From an uncultured Chloroflexia bacterium (lineage in GTDB: Bacteria; Chloroflexota; Anaerolineae; Anaerolineales; RBG-16-64-43), in assembly GCA_963780865.1 (NCBI GenBank), contig CAWADT010000022.1, positions 79,499-143,498 of the forward strand: a DNA stretch of 64,000 nucleotides, written 5' to 3'. How positions within the stretch are numbered: position 1 is the first letter of the stretch; every line of letters begins with the position of its first letter. Made by a program: the position numbers and the translations under genes. This document shows positions 11,629-54,800 of this stretch, in pieces. The notes under the pieces were generated by a model, which was not told the DNA's origin, ran no database searches, and was given only the letters and a program-made list of their open reading frames with translations.

Positions 11629-11701
11629 GCCGACGTAGCTCAATCGGCAGAGCAACCGCCTTGTAAGTGGTAGGTTATGGGTTCGATTCCCATCGTCGGC
11701 T
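11629..11701 (+). tRNA. tRNA-Thr (anticodon UGU)
   Basis: GCCGACG acceptor pairing with CGTCGGC, D arm GCTC/GAGC, anticodon stem ACCGC/GTGGT with loop CTTGTAA, T arm ATGGG-TTCGATT-CCCAT. Confidence 0.9.
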
Positions 11702-11792
11702 TGGGCGAACATACCGGGTGACCGGTGTTAACAACATCCGATCCGCGCTGGAGGGCGGCGGGCGTGGCGGGCGGGCGACCGCACCGGTGTAG

Positions 11793-11810
11793 GGGCGATG
11801 CATGCATCGC
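11793..11810. repeat. Perfect 18-nt palindrome GGCGATGCATGCATCGCC in the tRNA spacer (gtaggggcg-type hairpin family)
   Basis: Preceded by gtagg. The same prefix occurs at the 13555-13579 hairpin. Confidence 0.6.
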
Positions 11811-11851
11811 CTCTTGTAGCGGATCGGTCTCCCGCCGGCGACGGCGAATAT

Positions 11852-11937
11852 GGGCGGTTACCCAAGTGGCCAAAGGGGACTGACTGTAAATCAGTTGGCA
11901 GCAGCCTTCGGAGGTTCAAATCCTTCACCGCCCACCA
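11852..11937 (+). tRNA. tRNA-Tyr (anticodon GUA), long variable arm, CCA encoded
   Basis: GGGCGGT acceptor pairing with ACCGCCC, followed by A-CCA. Anticodon stem ACTGA/TCAGT with loop CTGTAAA. T loop TTCAAAT. Confidence 0.9.
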
Positions 11938-12022
11938 TCGGGGTTAAGCCTGCCCCCTGAGCGAGTTGTACCGGTGATCTTCCGGTGCGGCGATTTCGCG
12001 AGGGGGGCTTGCCTGCCCTCCA

Positions 12023-12095
12023 GCCCGCGTAGCTCAGTCGGTAGAGCACACCCTTGGTAAGGGTGGGGTCATGGGTCCAATTCCCATCGCGGGCT
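12023..12095 (+). tRNA. tRNA-Thr (anticodon GGU)
   Basis: GCCCGCG acceptor pairing with CGCGGGC, anticodon stem CACCC/GGGTG with loop TTGGTAA, T arm ATGGG-TCCAATT-CCCAT. Confidence 0.9.
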
Positions 12096-12142
12096 CTCGT
12101 CGGCCGGAAGAAGACGCTCATCTTTTCTGAGGAGAAGCGACC

Positions 12143-13342
<1,200 letters not shown>

Positions 13343-13382
13343 AAGGAGCCGCGGAGCTTTCCTTCCGCGGAAGGAATAGAGG

Positions 13383-13550
13383 ATGCCAAAATCGAAAGAT
13401 GTCCGGCCGGTAATCACGCTGGCCTGCTCCGACTGCAAGGAGCGCAACTATACGACCCAGAAAAACCGGCGCAACGATCAGGCGCGGCTGGAACTCAAGA
13501 AATATTGCCCGCATTGCCGCAAGCATACGTTGCACAAGGAATCAAAATAA
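13383..13550 (+). CDS. rpmG: 50S ribosomal protein L33
   Basis: 55 aa, below the ORF-track cutoff: [55 protein letters not shown]. It has two CxxC pairs and an AGAGG RBS. Confidence 0.9.
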
Positions 13551-13558
13551 TCGCGTAG

Positions 13559-13579
13559 GGGCGGATCGCTGATCCGCCC
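13559..13579 (+). repeat. Perfect 9-bp-stem hairpin GGGCGGATC-gct-GATCCGCCC after rpmG (gtaggggcg-type family)
   Basis: Lies between the rpmG stop and tRNA-Trp. There is no U-tract, so it is more likely a repeat or processing element than a terminator. Confidence 0.55.
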
Positions 13580-13610
13580 GAATTGGGCGCACAACCGTGC
13601 GCACCAACCT

Positions 13611-13684
13611 AGGCCAGTAGCTCAATTTGGCAGAGCACCGCTCTCCAAAAGCGGGGGTTGTGGGTTCAATTCCTGCCTGGCCTG
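13611..13684 (+). tRNA. tRNA-Trp (anticodon CCA)
   Basis: AGGCCAG acceptor pairing with CTGGCCT, anticodon stem CCGCT/AGCGG with loop CTCCAAA, T arm GTGGG-TTCAATT-CCTGC. Confidence 0.9.
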
Positions 13685-13736
13685 CCTGATGGTGTCGACC
13701 GGATCGTCGATCCGGTCTACAACTACGAACGATGGA

Positions 13737-27918: not shown

Positions 27919-27992
27919 AGTATATCCTGCCGGATCAGGAGGTCAAAACCGCCGGAATGATTTATCCGGCATTCGCGAGATGAAGTGTTCCC

Positions 27993-28021
27993 GGCAGCTT
28001 GCCCCGCACTCCTCTTTATTA
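27993..28021. repeat. Left half of palindrome family A (ggcagcttgccccgcactc + loop ctctttatta), split by a 2,006-bp insertion
   Basis: Compare the intact copy at 43989-44043. The right half is at 30028-30053, and TTA is present at both junctions (28019-21 and 30028-30). Confidence 0.8.
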
Positions 28022-28166
28022 GGTTTCAAAACCACTGCCTCTGGCAGTGAGTGGAATGAAAAGGTTCTACCGATGGAGTAGGCATCATGACCCATCCCAT
28101 CTCTCCTCCCCCGGCCCGAGCACGGCTCGGGCCGTCCCCCTCCTCCCTTCCCGTATTACGGGAAGG
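28022..28166. repeat. Left part of a ~390-bp nested element: terminal hairpin B (28033-28049, CACTGCC-tct-GGCAGTG) and left arm plus apex of palindrome C (28091-28166)
   Basis: The left arm of palindrome C is cccatcccatctctcct...tccccctcctcccttcccgta. It carries an extra 23-nt hairpin, CGGCCCGAG-cacgg-CTCGGGCCG, at 28112-28134. The apex is t, followed by tacgggaaGG. Confidence 0.75.
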
Positions 28167-28174
28167 ACATACTC

Positions 28175-28180
28175 TGTCAA
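28175..28180 (-). promoter_or_regulatory. Outward-facing -35 hexamer TTGACA, 8 nt from the IS right end (transposase orientation)
   Basis: The minus strand reads ...catcTTGACAgagtatgt| and then the element ends. It pairs with TAGAAT at 29773-29768 only after circularisation. Confidence 0.6.
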
Positions 28181-28305
28181 GATGCAGAAATTGAAAAAGG
28201 AGCGATTCTCTCTCGGAAACAAAACTGGGATTTTGTCCGATGGGCCAGGAACACAACGGTGCTTGTCCAAAACGCCGCTCTCGTTCCGAAATGGGTTGGA
28301 AAGGA

Positions 28306-29523
28306 TCAGGATATCGGGATTTTATCCGCCCGGTCTTTCAAGTGCCGGTTTTCGTCATAAAGTGTTTGTGTTTGCCAAAGCCTCCAGAGGACTGACAACC
28401 AGCGGTTGGCTAGGCAACGGTAGGCCTGCGCATCGCTCGAACAGCGCAATCGCACCTGTTGGAAGTACATTTGCGCCCAAGGCGATTCCGGCAGGGAGGC
28501 ACGCGCCCATTGTTGCGCGATGGTGCGGAACTCATGATCGCAGGAACGGCGGAATTTGACGTACCTCCGTTTCCCGCTCGCATCGGTCACCGGACATGTT
28601 CCCGCCAGCATCTGCAGCGAAGAGGGAGAAGGAAACCGGGAAAGATCTTCCCCCACCTTCGCCAGAAGTGCCGGAGCCAGATAGGCACCGGCCCCCGGCA
28701 GACTGGAAAATACCGGCGCCAAGGAGTGCTGTTCGAACAAGGGCTTGAGATCTTTCAGCGCCTGATATTTAGCGCGGACCAAAGCCAAGGTTGTCTCGGA
28801 GGTATGGACAATGACATTCCGAAACGCCTCCGCCGTATCCGAATCAGCATGGATCGCATTTTCCTGCAATCGGGCGAAACGCGAAGCCAACTTCCGGGGA
28901 GCGGGATACCGGTGCTGGCGGGCGAATTGAAGAAAGGCTTCCCATGTCAGCTGGGAGGCTTCTTGCGGGGTGGGAAAAAGTCTCAGGAAATGCAGGGAAA
29001 TCTGGGCATCCAGGTTGCAAAACAGTGTGGCGGCAGACGGGAAACAACGCAAGAGCACATCCCGCAGGCGGTTGGTTTGCCGAACGATATCGCGGGTGAG
29101 ATTGCCGATATGCCTTACCTGGATCTGCACCCGGCGGAGGGTTGAGCTTCCCGGAGACCAGGGCTGCAGGCGTTGCCGTTTGGTGCGCACCAGATCGGCT
29201 ATGATTTCCGCATCCCCTGGATCGGACTTGGCCCCGCTGCTAGTGCGCGTCTTTCGTTCGGCTTTGACCCGGTTGGGTGGGGCCACCCAAATGTGGGTGA
29301 AACCATTCGCCCAAAGGAAATCAATCAGAAGGGTGTACGAGCACTCGATGGCAAGGAAACAATCCTCCGGATCGGCTCCCAATCCGCGGGTTCGTTCCAC
29401 CAGGAGAGCGAAACCCGCTGCGGAATGGGGGATTTGGAATTTTGCCAGCAGGCTTCCTTCCTGGTTCTGGAAGCAAATATCATGTTTGGATCGGCTCCAG
29501 TCGATTCCTATGTACAATTGCAT
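28306..29523 (-). CDS. IS110-family (DEDD / RuvC-like + Tnp_20-like) transposase/recombinase
   Basis: 405 aa from ATG 29523, which is preceded by AAGGAGG. The sequence starts MQLYIGIDWSRSKHDICF. It continues with ...GAKSDPGDAEIIADL... and ...FSSLPGAGAYLAPALLAKVGEDLSRFPSPSSLQMLAGTCPVTDASGKR. It then shows ...SCDHEFRTIAQQWA... and ...YRCLANRWLSVLW. Confidence 0.92.
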   Translation of the reverse strand: MQLYIGIDWSRSKHDICFQNQEGSLLAKFQIPHSAAGFALLVERTRGLGADPEDCFLAIECSYTLLIDFLWANGFTHIWVAPPNRVKAERKTRTSSGAKSDPGDAEIIADLVRTKRQRLQPWSPGSSTLRRVQIQVRHIGNLTRDIVRQTNRLRDVLLRCFPSAATLFCNLDAQISLHFLRLFPTPQEASQLTWEAFLQFARQHRYPAPRKLASRFARLQENAIHADSDTAEAFRNVIVHTSETTLALVRAKYQALKDLKPLFEQHSLAPVFSSLPGAGAYLAPALLAKVGEDLSRFPSPSSLQMLAGTCPVTDASGKRRYVKFRRSCDHEFRTIAQQWARASLPESPWAQMYFQQVRLRCSSDAQAYRCLANRWLSVLWRLWQTQTLYDENRHLKDRADKIPIS

Positions 29524-29569
29524 GAGGGCCTCCTTATGGCGGAACGAGAGGTCCACCAGCACGGCCGAT

Positions 29570-29761
29570 CGGCTGTATCCCTGTTATGGCGCTAGTCGCG
29601 CAACATACTGTCGTCAGTCCCAATTCGGCGAACTTGGGAGACGGTCCTTCCCGGGCGCTCAAAGCGCAGAGGGGGGGTGGTCTTTTTCCCCAAGTCTGTG
29701 ACCGGTGGGTATGGCTTGGCTACGGACAAGCACGCACGCAGCCATATACCACCGGTCGCCT
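29570..29761 (-). ncRNA. Candidate bridge (guide) RNA in the IS110 left end: 5' stem-loop, target-binding loop, donor-binding loop
   Basis: On the minus strand there is a 5' stem ACCGGTGGTATATGGC...GCCATACCCACCGGT. Two internal loops follow, each built around a GCGC-N5-GCGC hairpin. Loop 1 strands are CCCCCTC (29675-29669) and CGGGAAGG (29653-29646). Loop 2 strands are AGTATGT (29609-29603) and TAACAGG (29586-29580). See the findings for the matches to the ends and the target. The extent of the RNA is approximate. Confidence 0.6.
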
Positions 29762-29767
29762 TTTTTT

Positions 29768-29773
29768 ATTCTA
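29768..29773 (-). promoter_or_regulatory. -10 hexamer TAGAAT, 7 nt inside the IS left end
   Basis: The minus strand reads |tgttagtTAGAATaaaaaaaggcgacc. It would direct transcription into the structured left-end RNA and the transposase gene. Confidence 0.55.
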
Positions 29774-29780
29774 ACTAACA

Positions 29781-30027
29781 GGGAGGAGGGGATAGGAGAG
29801 GTGGGATGGGAATGGGAAGAAGTATAGATAACGGGAAGTTGAGAAGAAAAAGTTTGACCAGTATTGAAGGAGGATGGAGCGGAGCAAATGGCACCGAATC
29901 ACATATATAAAAAAAGAGGAAAAGGGGATCTTGCGGGCGCGTAATGCGGTTGTTCGAAAAGGATCGGCAGGAGCACACCTTCCAGGTGCAGCAATCCAAA
30001 GCCACCGTCTCTGGCAGTGGTTATTTA
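29781..30027. repeat. Right part of the ~390-bp nested element: right arm of palindrome C (29781-29810) and terminal hairpin B' (30002-30020)
   Basis: The right arm is GGgaggagggga t aggagaggtgggatggg. The element ends ...ccaccgtctctggcagtggttattta. Confidence 0.75.
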
Positions 30028-30053
30028 TTACTCGAAGAGTGCGGGGCTCGACG
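30028..30053. repeat. Right half of split palindrome A (ttactcgaa + gagtgcggggctcgacg)
   Basis: Pairs with 27993-28021. It is followed at ~30068-30105 by the ataccgcgcggtcattca motif, which also follows the intact A copy at 44068-44100. Confidence 0.8.
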
Positions 30054-30353
30054 TACCTGTTCAGGGGGGTGGCGCTCCGCGATACCGCGCGGTCATTCAG
30101 CGCGGTTCCATCTATAGAGAGGTGTCTATGGCCAATCGCTTTCGAAGTTCCGCCCCGGCATGATCCGCAGCATAAAAAAAATCGAGGTTTTCAGAATCTC
30201 GTTTTTTATTTAGAGGGACAATTCAAGGAGAACGCGGATTCGATGGTTGCGTAGAGAGGGCTTCCCCCCTCGGAGCGCGAATCGATCAAGGGTGGAAAGG
30301 AACGTATTTTTCGCGGTCCGGAAAATTACTCGCCGACGAAATATTTTGATATT

Positions 30354-43901: not shown

Positions 43902-43960
43902 AGACCGCGTCGAAGTTTGTTTGGACCGTGTCGGGCTTTCAGACCGACGCGGTCTTTTTA
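43902..43960 (+). terminator. Long-loop hairpin with U-tract after 42333..43850
   Basis: AGACCGCGTCG-(32 nt)-CGACGCGGTCT followed by tttta. Confidence 0.4.
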
Positions 43961-43988
43961 TCCCGCTCTCGCGGGATGATGAATACCC

Positions 43989-44043
43989 CGCAGCTTGCCC
44001 CGCACTCCTCTATATTAATCGAAGAGTGCGGGGCAAGCTGCGC
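43989..44043. repeat. Intact palindrome family A (19-bp arms CGCAGCTTGCCCCGCACTC / GAGTGCGGGGCAAGCTGCG, 16-nt AT-rich loop)
   Basis: A perfect inverted repeat, used as the reference for the split copy at 27993-28021 / 30028-30053. Confidence 0.9.
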
Positions 44044-44097
44044 AGTTCTTGTGGGTTGTGCCCTTTGATACCGCGCGGCTTGCTGCGCGGTCATTCA

Positions 44098-44994: not shown

Positions 44995-45345
44995 GGGAAA
45001 ACCTCCATGGGGAGTTGAGCGGTATCGTCAACCGTTTTCCGACGAAGCTTCAGATCTTTAATCGTATCACGAAAGCATGCAAGGGATTTGGCGTGGGTTG
45101 AAGAATTCAAGCGTATCTCTGCCGCCATATCCGCTGGCTTTCCCGCGAGACCTGTCTCGCAGCGGCGCCGGGTGGGAATCCCGTCCAGGGTTCATCACCA
45201 TCATTCGTTTTCTTATTCCTCCCCGCCGAAAGTTTTCCCATCGAGGCCAACGGACGAGGGCGCTGTGGACGCTTTACAATTGTTTTGACAGCCGGCATCC
45301 CCGCCTCTATAATCATCGGGAGCCGGCTTCCGCCGGCATGGCAGA

Positions 45346-47382
45346 TTGAGAGCAGGCGCAAGCTTGAAATCCGTTTCCTCCGCAGCGTCCCCTGACCGGG
45401 GATTCCCTCCGACTCTTCGGCAAGGCCTGATCTTCGCGATCGCGCTGATCTGGCTGATGGCCCTCCCTTTGGTTTTTTATGTCTTCCATAAACCGCTTCC
45501 CACTCTGGCGTTCGAACGCGCCCGAAATATCTTGATCGATCTGCTCGGAGCGGGAGGGATTCTCTGGATTGGGGCCGGGATCGGTTGGCGGTTTGTGCGA
45601 AACGGCGGCGTTTCCACTTTGGAACAAATCGCTTTATCGGAGGCCGTCGGCCTCGGTGCCCTGGGCATGTTGTTTTTAGCGGCTGCCTGGGCGGGACTTT
45701 TCTATCGATCCGTTGTAATTGCAATCCTGATCGTTTTATTCCTCACGGCCACCGCGATCCTGTTGCCGGCGATCGTTCGCGCCGTGAAAACCCGCCCCGA
45801 AGGCCGGCAGATCGCGCGCGGCTTTTCCCTCTGCCTGGGATTGTTCATCGTCCTATCCCTGATGCTCTCCTTGGGGATCGCGCTTTGCCCGCCCGTGGCT
45901 TGGGACGCGCTGGTCTACCACTTGCAAATCCCCCGGCAGATCCTTACGGCGCACTCACTTGCGCTGCCGGGGGATTCCTTGTTCCGGGAAATGCCGGAGC
46001 TTGTGGAAATGCTTTTCGCCGGGGCGATCGCGCTGACGGGAAGGGCCGAGACGGCGGCGGTCGTGGGCTGGGGAATCGGATTGCTGGCGCTGGGGGGAAT
46101 CACGGGGCTCGCCCGGCGCTGGGGCCTGCGGTACCCGCTCCTGCCAGCCGCGCTCCTTCTGGCGGGGGATACGCTCGCCCGATCGATGGGATGGGGTTAC
46201 GCGGATTGGGCGGCGGCCCTGTTCGGAGTCGCCGCCTTGAGCGCCGTCTCGCGGAAAGAAGAGGGCGCGCGCTGGCTTTTTCTGGCGGGGATATTTGCCG
46301 GCTTTGCGATGGGGACGAAATATACGGCCGGCGCGTTGTTGATCGTCCTGTGCCTGGCGCTCGCGTCGCTACGGCAATGGAGGAAGTCATTAAAGGAAGC
46401 GGCGTTCGTGCTTGCCGGATGTGTGCTGGCGTTTTCTCCATGGGCGTTGCGCGGATTGGCTTTTTTTGGGAATCCTCTTCCGCCAATCCTTGACGCCGGC
46501 GCGGCGAGCGCGCAGCAAATGCGCTTCTTCGCCGGCTCGCCTCCGGCCTACGGATGGTTCGTCATGGCGTTTGTCCCGCTTCTGCAATCGACCATCGGCA
46601 CTTACGGCGCGGCTCCCTTCGCCGCTACGATCGGCCCGCTGCTGTTTGCGTTTCTGCCCGGAGCGCTCGTCCCCCGCAAAGAAGGGATCTCCGCGGACGG
46701 TTTCCTCACCACACTCTTCTGGCTTTGCATAATCATCTACTGGTTGGCAGTCGGAGCGGGGAGCCTGTTCTCCGGCGCGCTGACCCAACCCAGAGTTTAC
46801 TTATCGCTGTTTCCGGGGATCGCCCTGCTGGCCGCCCGCGGATTCGACGGACTATGGGAAATCCGGCTGGCGAAAGTCCGGCTGGGGGCGCTGGCGGCCG
46901 TGTTGACGATTCTGGTTCTAGCGCTGCAGGCGATCAGCTTCGGGAATTCTTGGGTGGCTTCGGGCGTCCCCAATTATCTCGCCGGCGCGCAATCGGAACA
47001 GACATTCCTGGAGAACAATCTGGGATGGTACGCGAAAGCAATGGAAACCGTGCGCTCTCTCCCGGACGGATCGCGCGTGCTGATGCTCTGGGAGCCGCGC
47101 GGTTTGTATTGCGGGGGAAAATGCCAGGCCGACGCAACCATCGACCGATGGTACCTTGCCATGCGGTTGGGCGGGTCGGCGGAAGCGGCGCTGGCGGATT
47201 GGCGCCGCGAGGGATGGACCTACCTTCTGATTTTTGATGAAGGCGCGAATTTTGAACGGACGGGCCGGACGGAATATTTCCTTTCCGACTGGACGGAGTT
47301 GGACCGATTGCGCAGCCTGCTGACGCCCGTTCCCGGCTTCGCAAACGGGTATTCCCTCTACATTCTGTCTACCGGGTATTAG
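45346..47382 (+). CDS. GT-C-like (PMT_2/ArnT-like) polytopic membrane protein with C-terminal soluble domain
   Basis: 678 aa with 12 or more hydrophobic helices. A first-loop motif reads PPVAWDALVYHLQIPRQ. The start codon is uncertain; alternative Met codons lie within the first 40 codons. Confidence 0.7.
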   Translation: MRAGASLKSVSSAASPDRGFPPTLRQGLIFAIALIWLMALPLVFYVFHKPLPTLAFERARNILIDLLGAGGILWIGAGIGWRFVRNGGVSTLEQIALSEAVGLGALGMLFLAAAWAGLFYRSVVIAILIVLFLTATAILLPAIVRAVKTRPEGRQIARGFSLCLGLFIVLSLMLSLGIALCPPVAWDALVYHLQIPRQILTAHSLALPGDSLFREMPELVEMLFAGAIALTGRAETAAVVGWGIGLLALGGITGLARRWGLRYPLLPAALLLAGDTLARSMGWGYADWAAALFGVAALSAVSRKEEGARWLFLAGIFAGFAMGTKYTAGALLIVLCLALASLRQWRKSLKEAAFVLAGCVLAFSPWALRGLAFFGNPLPPILDAGAASAQQMRFFAGSPPAYGWFVMAFVPLLQSTIGTYGAAPFAATIGPLLFAFLPGALVPRKEGISADGFLTTLFWLCIIIYWLAVGAGSLFSGALTQPRVYLSLFPGIALLAARGFDGLWEIRLAKVRLGALAAVLTILVLALQAISFGNSWVASGVPNYLAGAQSEQTFLENNLGWYAKAMETVRSLPDGSRVLMLWEPRGLYCGGKCQADATIDRWYLAMRLGGSAEAALADWRREGWTYLLIFDEGANFERTGRTEYFLSDWTELDRLRSLLTPVPGFANGYSLYILSTGY

Positions 47383-47860: not shown

Positions 47861-48115
47861 TTTCCTATTTTCACACTGCCTGCTGGACCGTGAGCTTGAA
47901 GCCCTTAGGCTTTCAATGACCCATTGGGTCTCTTGATTCCTACGCTTTTGGAGCTTCGCCGCGAATTCACTAAAACCCGCCCGGCTTTGACAAGCCCCGG
48001 TCACTCATTTACAATAGCACCCACCGTAGAAACGCGGTATTTTCCACCCGTATCATCTCCAATCGAAAACTGCGGGGAGCTTCCCTTCCCTGCCTCCGGA
48101 GGTCTGCCAAATAGC

Positions 48116-50194
48116 ATGAAGGAATATGCGACCGATGCCATCCGCAACATCGCACTGATCGGACACGGCAGCGCGGGCAAGACCACCCTGGTCGAGGCCT
48201 TCCTGCATTTTACCGGCGCCTCCACTAGGCTTGGCAAAATCGAAGACGGCACGACGGTTTCCGACTACGAAGAAGAAGAAGTCCGGCGCAGAATTTCCCT
48301 CTCCACTTCGGTCATCCCGATCGAATTCCAGGATTGCAAAATCAACTTATTGGACACCCCCGGTTTTCCGGATTTCATCGGCGAGGTGATCTCCGCGCTG
48401 CGCGTGGCCAGCGGCGCGATGGTTCTGCTGGACGCGGTGGCCGGCGTGGAAGTGGGCACCGAAATCACCTGGCAGCATTGCGAGGATTTTCACCTCCCGC
48501 GCTTTGTGGTGATCGCCAAGATGGATCGCGAGAACGCCGACTACGAACGGGTGCTGGAGAGCGCGAAAAACCTCCCGGGCGCCAAACTCGTTCCGGTTCA
48601 GCTTCCCATCGGTCAAGGCCAGCATTTCAAGGGCGTCATCGACCTGATGGCGATGAAGGCCCGCCTGGGAAACGGCAAGGAAGCGACGGATATCCCGGCC
48701 GACATGAAAGCGGCGGCCGAGGAAGCCCGCGTGGCGCTGATGGAAGCGGCGGCGGAGGGCGAAGACGAACTCCTTGAAAAATATCTGGGCGGTACCGAGC
48801 TGACCCAGGAGGAAATGATCCGCGGGTTGCGCCAGGCGGTGTGGAACAGCGTCTGCATGCCGGTCTTCGCCTGCGCCGGATCGACCGAGGTGGGGATCGA
48901 GCCGCTGTTGTATGGGGCAACCAAACTGATCCCCTCGCCCTCCGAGTCGCCCAAGACGGAAGCGGAAGGGAAAGGCGGCAAGGAGGAACTGGCCTGCTCC
49001 GACGCCGGTCCGCTCGCCGTGTACATCTGGAAAACCACCGCCGATCCGTTTGTGGGCAAGCAGACCTACTTCCGCGTATATTCCGGCACGCTCAGCTCGG
49101 ATACGCGCGTGTGGAATTCCAAGAAGTCGGCGGAAGAGCGCCTGGGAACGCTGTCCGTCCCGCGCGGGAAGGAAACGCTGCCGATCAAGGCCGCGCACGC
49201 CGGAGACATCGGCATCGTCCCCAAACTTTCCGTCACCGTCACCGGCGATACGCTGTGCGATAAGGGACATCCCCTAACCCTGCCGGCTCCGATATTTCCG
49301 ACGGCTCTGTATGCGGTGGCCGTAACCCCCAAGACCCAGGCCGACGCGGCCAAGATTTCGCCCACCCTCACCCGGTTGTGCGAGGAAGACATGACGCTTT
49401 CCTGGCACAACGACCCCAACACGCTGCAGACAATCCTGCAGGGAATGGGCGATCAGCATATCGACGTGGCCATCCGGCGCGCGGAATCCAAATTCCAGGT
49501 GGGGCTGCACATCGAGCTGCCGCGCGTACCCTATCGCGAGTCGATCACCAAACCCAACAGCGCCATGTACCGTCACAAGAAGCAGACCGGCGGATCCGGG
49601 CAATTCGGCGAAGTGCACCTGCGGGTGGAACCGCTGGGGACAGCCGATTTCGAATTCGAGAACGAGGTGGTTGGGGGAGCTATCTCCGGCTCCTACATGT
49701 CGGCCATCGAAAAGGGGGTGCGTTCGGTGATGCAGCACGGTGCGGTGGCCGGCTACCCGATGGAAAAAATCAGGGTCGCGGTTTTCGACGGCAAGGAACA
49801 TCCGGTGGATTCCAAACCGGTGGCGTTTGAGATCGCCGGGCGCGAGGCTTTCAAACTTGCGGTGCATGGCGCCAGCCCGGTGCTGCTCGAGCCGATCATG
49901 AACATCCATGTCGTCGTCCCTGAAGACCATATGGGCGATGTCCTGGGGGATCTCAATACCCGCCGCGCGCGCGTTCAGGGGATGGACAACGAAAACGGCA
50001 AGAGCATCGTCAACGCCACCATTCCGCTGGCGGAAATTCAGCGCTATACAACCGACCTGCGTTCCATTACCGGCGGACGCGGTTATTTCACCATGACCCT
50101 GGACCATTACGAAGTGATGCCGAGAGCCGTGGCCGATCAGGTCATCGCCGCCCACCAGAAAGACCTCGCCGGCAAGACCGAGGAAGAAGAATAA
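48116..50194 (+). CDS. Elongation factor G paralog (EF-G2-like translational GTPase)
   Basis: 692 aa from MKEYATDAIRNIALIGHGSAGKTTLVEAFL. G3 is DTPGFPDF and G4 is AKMD instead of NKxD. Domains II-V are recognisable (e.g. GDTL, HPVDS, RRARVQGM). The 64 upstream codons of the track ORF cover repeat DNA. Confidence 0.88.
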   Translation: MKEYATDAIRNIALIGHGSAGKTTLVEAFLHFTGASTRLGKIEDGTTVSDYEEEEVRRRISLSTSVIPIEFQDCKINLLDTPGFPDFIGEVISALRVASGAMVLLDAVAGVEVGTEITWQHCEDFHLPRFVVIAKMDRENADYERVLESAKNLPGAKLVPVQLPIGQGQHFKGVIDLMAMKARLGNGKEATDIPADMKAAAEEARVALMEAAAEGEDELLEKYLGGTELTQEEMIRGLRQAVWNSVCMPVFACAGSTEVGIEPLLYGATKLIPSPSESPKTEAEGKGGKEELACSDAGPLAVYIWKTTADPFVGKQTYFRVYSGTLSSDTRVWNSKKSAEERLGTLSVPRGKETLPIKAAHAGDIGIVPKLSVTVTGDTLCDKGHPLTLPAPIFPTALYAVAVTPKTQADAAKISPTLTRLCEEDMTLSWHNDPNTLQTILQGMGDQHIDVAIRRAESKFQVGLHIELPRVPYRESITKPNSAMYRHKKQTGGSGQFGEVHLRVEPLGTADFEFENEVVGGAISGSYMSAIEKGVRSVMQHGAVAGYPMEKIRVAVFDGKEHPVDSKPVAFEIAGREAFKLAVHGASPVLLEPIMNIHVVVPEDHMGDVLGDLNTRRARVQGMDNENGKSIVNATIPLAEIQRYTTDLRSITGGRGYFTMTLDHYEVMPRAVADQVIAAHQKDLAGKTEEEE

Positions 50195-50306: not shown

Positions 50307-50461
50307 GTCATGCCCGAGCCTGCCCTCGCGCCGGCCCCCCGAGCGATGAGCATCGGTGACCCTTCGATGCGAAGAATTCGTGAGTGGGGGGAGCATTCCC
50401 ACTCGAATCTGGTTGTTGAGTGGGAATGAATGCGAAGCGAGGGTGATTATATCGGGCATCC
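50307..50461. repeat. 155-bp expanded member of hairpin family F (gtcatgcccgag ... atcgggcatcc) carrying an internal inverted copy of the 95-bp element
   Basis: The outer arms are identical to the 40-bp tandem units. The inner sequence ...gggaatgaatgcgaagcgagggtg is the reverse complement of the caccctcgct(t/a)cgcattcat block at 50897 and 54722. Confidence 0.65.
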
Positions 50462-50706
50462 ATGAAAGCTTGTCATGCCCGAGTGGTCGTATCGGGCATC
50501 CATGAAAGCTTGTCATGCCCGAGTGGTCGTATCGGGCATCCACGGGAGCCTGTCATGCCCGAGTAGTCTTATCGGGCATCCACGGGAGCCTATCATGACC
50601 GAGAAGGCGTATCAGGCAGCCATGAGAGCCTGTCATGCCCGAGAAGGCGTATCAGGCAGCCATGAGAGCCTGTCATGCCCGAGTGATTCTATCGGGCATC
50701 CACGCG
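50431..50706 (+). repeat. Tandem array of ~7 units of a 40-bp repeat, each containing the hairpin ATGCCCGA-N9-TCGGGCAT (family F minimal unit)
   Basis: tgtcatgccc recurs at 50471, 50511, 50551, 50631 and 50671, with a degenerate copy at 50591 (tatcatgacc), giving an exact 40-bp period. Units differ in the 7-8-nt loop and the 9-nt linker. Confidence 0.9.
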
Positions 50707-50878
50707 TTTTATTTTCTTGACAAAATGTTGATTTTGGATTCCCGCCCCCCGAGAAACCCACTCGAGGGCAGGCTAATCCACGCGGGAATGACGAACACCC
50801 TTCAGATAAGTTCGTCCCGGATGAATGATCGAATTGGGCATCCATGGGGAAGAAATATCTTCCATTATTGCTGGTGTT

Positions 50879-50973
50879 GGATTCCCGCCAAGGACACCCT
50901 CGCTACGCATTCATCCCGGCTCATGAACCAGACGCGAGTCGGGATGCTTTGCGAGGGCTGGCGCAGGAATGAC
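50879..50973 (+). repeat. 95-bp palindromic element (ggattcccgcc...caccctcgctacgcattcatcccggctcatgaacca...gcgagggctggcgcaggaatgac)
   Basis: ~85% identical to 54706-54800. Confidence 0.8.
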
Positions 50974-54669: not shown

Positions 54670-54705
54670 AGAAGAAGAGTGATTGATGCTTGCAAAGCAT
54701 GGACT

Positions 54706-54800
54706 GGATCCCCGCTTAGAACACCCTCGCTTCGCATTCATCCCGGCTCATGAACCAAACTCGAGCCGAGATGCTGCGCGAGGGCAGGCGCGGGGATGAC
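54706..54800 (+). repeat. 95-bp palindromic element, second copy
   Basis: ggatccccgcttagaacaccctcgcttcgcattcatcccggctcatgaaccaaactcgagccgagatgctgcgcgagggcaggcgcggggatgac. Confidence 0.8.

Follow-up and report, generated by a model that had tools for sequence, protein, structure and literature searches.

An IS110-family element from an Anaerolineales-type genome with a predicted promoter split between its two ends

How might an insertion sequence (IS) express its genes when the two halves of their promoter lie at its opposite ends? This question is raised by an IS110-family element found within a 64,000 nucleotide (nt) stretch of DNA, referred to here as the window, from an uncultured Chloroflexia bacterium assigned to the Anaerolineales (assembly GCA_963780865.1, contig CAWADT010000022.1, positions 79,499 to 143,498). 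A sequence-only reading of this locus had suggested that circularisation of the element would bring together a TTGACA -35 hexamer and a TAGAAT -10 hexamer at the junction between the joined ends. The analysis described here indicates that the element is very probably an intact, bridge RNA-guided recombinase IS of the IS110 group, resident in an Anaerolineales-type genome and carrying the junction promoter of its family.

The complete IS occupies window positions 28167-29780 on the minus strand, is 1614 bp long and is bordered by the core dinucleotide CC on both sides, at 29781-29782 (left junction) and 28165-28166 (right junction), both read on the minus strand. These boundaries had originally been derived from a palindrome that the element interrupts, and they were upheld by comparison with relatives encoding recombinases 51-100% identical to that of the window, taken from Logan, ENA, JGI and GTDB contigs. 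The relatives occupy many different insertion sites, and the similarity of the 14 found at other sites breaks exactly between AGTATGT and CC on the right and between CC and TGTTAG on the left, with CC present at both ends in every case. The interval first proposed, 28175-29773, extends only from one promoter hexamer to the other and is nested within the whole element. The IS is present once in the window, and its closest genomic relatives are in metagenome-assembled genomes of Anaerolineales; a scan of metagenome_contigs for further relatives gave one locus, and P0004 lay outside the DNA comparison. Terminal inverted repeats are absent, as the beginning (TGTTAGT) and end (GAGTATGT) of the element are not inverted repeats of each other. 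The non-coding ends are 257 nt long on the left, where a structured RNA is located, and 139 nt on the right.

On the minus strand, the first letters of the element are TGTTAGT-TAGAAT (29780..29768) and the last are TTGACA-GAGTATGT (28180..28167). The TTGACA hexamer, at 28175-28180 (-), faces outwards from the right end and is followed by eight terminal nucleotides (28167-28174, -), which serve both as the donor site's left half and as the opening portion of the promoter spacer. The TAGAAT hexamer, at 29768-29773 (-), is preceded by the seven terminal nucleotides of the left end (TGTTAGT, 29774-29780, -), which make up the donor site's right half and complete the spacer. Joining the right end to the left end through one copy of CC generates TTGACA-GAGTATGTCCTGTTAGT-TAGAAT, with a spacer of exactly 17 nt, as had been claimed. 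The assembled promoter is directed into the structured RNA, here recognised as a bridge RNA, and then into a gene encoding a 405 amino acid (aa) recombinase. Transcription would be expected to start around 7 nt beyond the -10 hexamer, near 29761-29760, which lies 2-3 nt ahead of the first stem of the bridge RNA.

By contrast with this predicted junction, the integrated copy has CCTATC at a distance of 17 nt upstream of TAGAAT, as originally noted, and CTATCC and TCCTAT at 16 nt and 18 nt; the best match to TTGACA across these spacings is 2/6. A promoter scan of the integrated region between 27900 and 30100 revealed no promoter-like site directed into the left end. Similarly, neither the 17 nt nor the 18 nt spacer variants contain an extended -10 motif (TGn), by which the left end might function unaided when integrated.

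The same arrangement is found throughout the relatives. An exact TTGACA is invariant in the right ends of 15 lineages, and each of the 14 in which both ends are available has this hexamer separated from the core by 7 or 8 nt, a TAnnnT hexamer 7 or 8 nt past the core in the left end (TAGAAT, TAGTAT, TATAAT, TATGCT or TAAGCT, in the same position), and an assembled spacer of 17 or 18 nt. At the equivalent -35 position, the integrated copies of these lineages agree with TTGACA at only 1-4 of the six bases. The contributions of the two ends to the spacer nevertheless differ, being 8+2+7 in the window, 8+2+8 in six lineages (L010, L011, L016-L018 and L023) and 7+2+8 in L019. Since the sum is maintained while the shares of the ends vary, a constraint of this type makes sense only if the ends act when joined, and the compensated split between them therefore argues, on purely comparative grounds, for selection on the assembled promoter. 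It is the invariant TTGACA, the maintained sum of the spacer, the position of the expected start site and the experiments on related elements discussed below that together support the split promoter reading.

The only long open reading frame (ORF) of the element is the recombinase gene (28306-29523, -), which is preceded by AAGGAGG. Its product matches the Pfam domains PF01548 (DEDD_Tnp_IS110, E = 1.7e-30), a RuvC-like DEDD domain, and PF02371 (Transposase_20, E = 9.9e-13), the Tnp domain specific to IS110 elements, as well as the NCBIfam model NF033542, 'IS110 family RNA-guided transposase', with a score of 145.8 bits relative to a cutoff of 140. A search of solved structures with the single recombinase sequence gave no match, whereas a profile of 11 relatives reached the solved IS621 recombinase, 8wt6, with an E value of 7.7e-8. 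In the resulting alignment, residues D8, E60, D101, D104 and S316-G317, invariant in the 11 relatives, correspond to the catalytic residues D11, E60, D102, D105 and S241-G242 published for IS621. On the basis of these domain matches and catalytic residues, the gene looks intact.

The left non-coding end is more highly conserved than the coding sequence and folds into four parts. Three of these comprise the bridge RNA (29563-29761, -): a 5' stem-loop at 29757-29700, a target-binding stem-loop at 29696-29631, consisting of a first module of stem, internal loop and hairpin, and a donor-binding stem-loop at 29629-29563, formed by a second module of the same kind. The fourth is a conserved hairpin at 29526-29554 (-) that pairs the Shine-Dalgarno sequence of the recombinase gene, AAGGAGG (hairpin sequence GGACCTC...AAGGAGGCCC). 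With 12 sequences, pairing is seen in 96.7% of cells under this fold, compared with 28-43% when the partners are slid relative to one another, and nine pairs exhibit compensatory changes; once three more distant sequences were added, giving 15 in total, 17 of the 50 pairs covaried. Folding of the bridge RNA as a single sequence gave a z-score of -2.8. An Rfam search of the region with E values up to 1 identified no family, and thus no curated bridge RNA model applies. No terminator-like site was found on the minus strand between the bridge RNA and the recombinase gene.

The internal loop of the first module varies from one lineage to the next in step with the flanking DNA, with at least seven target sites represented among the relatives. 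In the window, its 5' arm contains the left target guide (LTG; ACCCCCCCTCTG, 29667-29678, -), which is in the same sense as the left flank and covaries with it, and its 3' arm contains the right target guide (RTG; CGGGAAGG, 29646-29653, -), which is the reverse complement of the core and right flank, CCTTCCCG, at 8/8 positions and likewise covaries in relatives. For instance, the 5' arm of the target loop in lineage L015 is ATGACCTTTC, as is its left flank (ATGACCTTTC), and in L005 TTTATCCCG accompanies a target of TTTATC-CC-G. Similarly, the 3' arm, as a reverse complement, relates TTTTTGGGG to CCCCAAAAA in L015 and AGTACGG to CCGTACT in L016. The loop of the second module, on the other hand, is constant and matches the ends of the element itself: the left donor guide (LDG), AGTATGT (29603-29609, -), corresponds to the terminus of the right end, and the right donor guide (RDG), TAACAGG (29580-29586, -), is the reverse complement of the CC core followed by TGTTA, the terminus of the left end. 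The 5' guides are therefore in the sense of the top strand and the 3' guides are reverse complements, which is the LTG/RTG/LDG/RDG pattern defined in IS621.

Two finer details of the target guides were noted. With respect to the core, the left target guide of L005 and L014 is offset in register by 1 nt from that of the window, L015 and L016. In addition, the letters of the 5' guides that face the CC core are mostly C followed by U or C, rather than CC, with AU or GC in a few lineages, which suggests wobble or discontinuous pairing.

Explanations for the conserved hexamers other than a split promoter have to be weighed against these data. The TTGACA of the right end could be a motif recognised by the recombinase or bridge RNA, as a subterminal component of the donor, with its similarity to a -35 box being coincidental. 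It is, after all, invariant and situated only 7-8 nt from the point of crossover, and the right end also harbours other conserved motifs and a hairpin. It is, however, identical to the sigma-70 consensus and lies outside the donor matched by the guides, AGTATGT-CC-TGTTA, and its distance across the junction to TAnnnT stays at 17-18 nt while the shares of the ends change. Furthermore, a 22 bp IS621 donor lacking the -35 box still recombines when the bridge RNA is supplied in trans. Because the hexamers are beyond the reach of the donor guides, and the 12-30 nt immediately upstream of TTGACA are poorly conserved among relatives, their invariance needs an explanation of its own, and a recognition motif is an improbable one.

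A different role for an outward-facing TTGACA would be to form hybrid promoters with the flanking DNA, mainly driving the minus strand neighbour downstream of the right end, a 510 aa ORF at 27918-26386, rather than the genes of the element. In one relative, L010, the flank does provide TATAAC at 16 nt. Yet the best hexamers in the flank of the window, TAATAC or AATACG, match at 3/6 positions and lack the final T, and those of most relatives also match at no more than 3/6; the flank is strongly palindromic; and a promoter-like site, TTGACC-16-TATACT at 27919-27946 (-), lies directly upstream of the neighbouring gene itself. As this explanation also fails to account for the conserved -10 hexamer and the conserved spacing, it appears very unlikely to be correct.

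That the halves are a functionless chance juxtaposition is scarcely credible, given that a perfect -35 hexamer with a -10 hexamer matching at five or more positions at 16-18 nt has a probability of 6.6e-7 per position under the composition of the window (60% G+C), and that every one of the 14 lineages for which both ends are available keeps the arrangement, even where protein identity falls to 51%. The number of such promoters expected over both strands of the window (128 kb) is 0.08, and two other sites were seen. These are TTGACA-17-TATAAT at 45285-45313 (+) and TTGACA-17-TACAAT at 47987-48015 (+), each of which is positioned shortly before a long ORF (45346-47382 and 47924-50194, respectively), suggesting that the host uses canonical sigma-70-type boxes.

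Several observations weigh against a junction promoter in this element. It is predicted from sequence and conservation, and the feature is not universal among its relations: circles of ISPpu9, from Pseudomonas putida, create no junction promoter, and so the feature is better described as common in the family. The -10 hexamer is TAGAAT in the window but matches the consensus at just 3-4 of six positions in some relatives (TAAGCT, TATGCT and TAGTAT). Moreover, the excised circle itself was not encountered. The circle junction is predicted to be GACAGAGTATGTCCTGTTAGTTAGAAT and the restored empty site CCCCTCCTCCCTTCCCGTAATACGGG; a degenerate 26 nt junction pattern, TTGACANAGTATGTCCTGTTAGNTAG, had no matches in genome_contigs and none in metagenome_contigs, and the junction was in none of the 27 relative or locus sequences examined. 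As assembled contigs are poorly suited to detecting rare circles, these negative results neither support nor refute excision. One candidate for a circle assembly, the 1508 bp Logan contig L001, which encodes an identical recombinase, was rejected, since it ends in the same chromosomal flank.

The anatomy, conservation, RNA structure and guide-to-DNA matches are shown by the sequences, and family precedent suggests how circle formation, promoter activity and an on/off switch would be coupled in a cycle. While the element is integrated, 1.6 kb of DNA separates the promoter halves, which face away from one another. As the left end then retains only a -10 hexamer, the bridge RNA and recombinase would be made at a low level, either from a weak internal start or through read-through. 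If the element were excised at the CC core, which would be a rare event, the right end would be joined to the left, creating TTGACA-17 nt-TAGAAT. Transcripts from this promoter could begin slightly ahead of the bridge RNA's 5' stem and extend into the recombinase gene, and the circle would consequently express its own guide RNA and enzyme strongly, before reinserting at a site matched by its target-binding loop, whereupon integration would split the promoter once more.

A junction promoter is already a documented property of IS110/IS1111 elements, and the idea of a split promoter is not new for the family. One has reportedly been documented for ISEc11. In IS621 of Escherichia coli, the archetype of the IS110 group, the junction of right and left ends forms a promoter with its -35 box in the right end, from which an RNA of approximately 177 nt starts; a donor shortened to 22 bp no longer contains the -35 box and loses expression in cis. 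Integrated IS621 undergoes weak read-through transcription, sufficient for rare excision, after which the circle boosts expression. Similarly, ISPpu10 of P. putida, whose native promoter is weak, acquires, on formation of a minicircle, a strong hybrid promoter, proven with a reporter, composed of a -35 box from the right end and a -10 box from the left. For IS492 and ISEc11 (of the IS1111/IS110 family), IS911, IS30 and IS21, circle formation reportedly joins an outward-facing -35 box to an inward-facing -10 box at a working distance.

In common with IS621, the element described here encodes a recombinase with DEDD and serine catalytic residues, lacks inverted repeats, has a 2 nt core, and possesses a long left end specifying a bridge RNA with a 5' stem-loop, target loop and donor loop and the same pattern of guides. 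It further resembles IS621 in its insertion into palindromic repeats and in having a sigma-70-like promoter that would be rebuilt across the core, with the -35 box in the right end. The two are nevertheless distant kin, with recombinases of 405 aa and 326 aa and cores of CC and CT, respectively; the 257 nt left end with its additional Shine-Dalgarno-pairing hairpin and the Anaerolineales (Chloroflexota) host also distinguish the present element. The allocation of -35 and -10 boxes to the right and left ends is as in ISPpu10, where it was demonstrated with a reporter, the equivalent here being deduced from the hexamers. The logic of the junction promoter is likewise shared with ISEc11, IS492, IS911, IS30 and IS21. 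However, elements of the IS1111 group have their guide RNA in the right end, rather than the left, and IS3, IS30 and IS21 differ in having DDE transposases and inverted repeats. ISPpu9, also of the IS110 family, inserts into repetitive extragenic palindromic (REP) sequences and forms circles, but lacks the junction hexamers present here.

Current views of the family are thus unchanged, its junction promoters having already been shown experimentally, and a reading from sequence alone recovered the regulatory logic of IS110 elements, that of a promoter existing only in the excised circle. What is added is a well-delimited and apparently active lineage of bridge recombinases from Anaerolineales, with a 405 aa enzyme and a CC core. 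Its relatives carry guides that have been naturally retargeted to sites that are mostly palindromic or repeat-like, and could serve in the mining of bridge recombinases and the study of natural guide reprogramming.

The position of the donor site hints at a further layer of control. AGTATGT-CC-TGTTA lies entirely inside the 17 nt spacer of the promoter and, since the whole site is between the -35 and -10 hexamers, a complex of recombinase and bridge RNA bound to it on the circle might occlude RNA polymerase, with the Shine-Dalgarno hairpin acting as a second, translational gate. This proposal is speculative and must be considered rather doubtful. The hairpin may in itself gate translation downstream of the bridge RNA. 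Were occlusion to occur, the junction promoter would produce a self-limiting pulse, being switched on by circle formation, shut off by its own product and destroyed by integration, and a translational gate at the ribosome-binding site would be tied to the folding or processing of the bridge RNA.

The hairpin of the right end, TCGGACAAAATCCCAGTTTTGTTTCCGA (28213-28240, -), is upstream of the -35 hexamer and is conserved, with one of its pairs being GC, UA or AU across the relatives; it is not a canonical terminator. Two further motifs, CGGAACGAGAGCGGC and CTGGACAAGCACCG, are conserved in the same end.

The DNA surrounding the element is itself rich in repeats. The IS has inserted into an arm of the symmetric palindrome CCCCTCCTCCCTTCCCG-TAATA-CGGGAAGGGAGGAGGGG. 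Only a few bases beyond its right end, the mirror image of its target, CCCCTCCTC-CC-TTCCCG (28137-28155, +), survives uninterrupted, such that another copy could insert there in the opposite orientation. A REP-like hairpin element, of which there is an intact copy at 43957-44050, is split at 27961-28023 and 30025-30065 by approximately 2 kb of DNA. This insert consists of around 385 bp of palindrome-rich sequence (28024-28164 and 29783-30024) containing the IS110 element. The 385 bp component terminates in CCACTGCCTCTGGCAGTG and CCACCGTCTCTGGCAGTGG and has TTTATTA on both sides, possibly representing a 7 bp target duplication, and the REP-like repeat, the 385 bp component and the IS look like a three-level nested insertion.

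Members of the same REP-like repeat family are also targets for relatives of the element. Lineages L005-L009 and L014, with recombinases 74-75% identical to that of the window, are inserted into this family, as judged by comparison with the window copies at 27961-28021 and 43957-44017. Their targets are TTTATC-CC-GCTTTCGCGGGATGA and CAGCTTGCC-CC-GCTTTC, the target loops being altered to match, and this lineage seems to be specialised on host palindromic repeats.

Elsewhere in the window, a 40 bp tandem repeat is present in 6.3 copies at 50450-50702, with 88% matches, and two 96 nt repeats, at 50878-50973 and 54705-54800, share 85% identity, are separated by 3.8 kb and have an inverted partner at 50392-50462. 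A tRNA cluster at 11629-13686 (+) comprises Thr(TGT), Tyr(GTA), Thr(GGT) and Trp(CCA).

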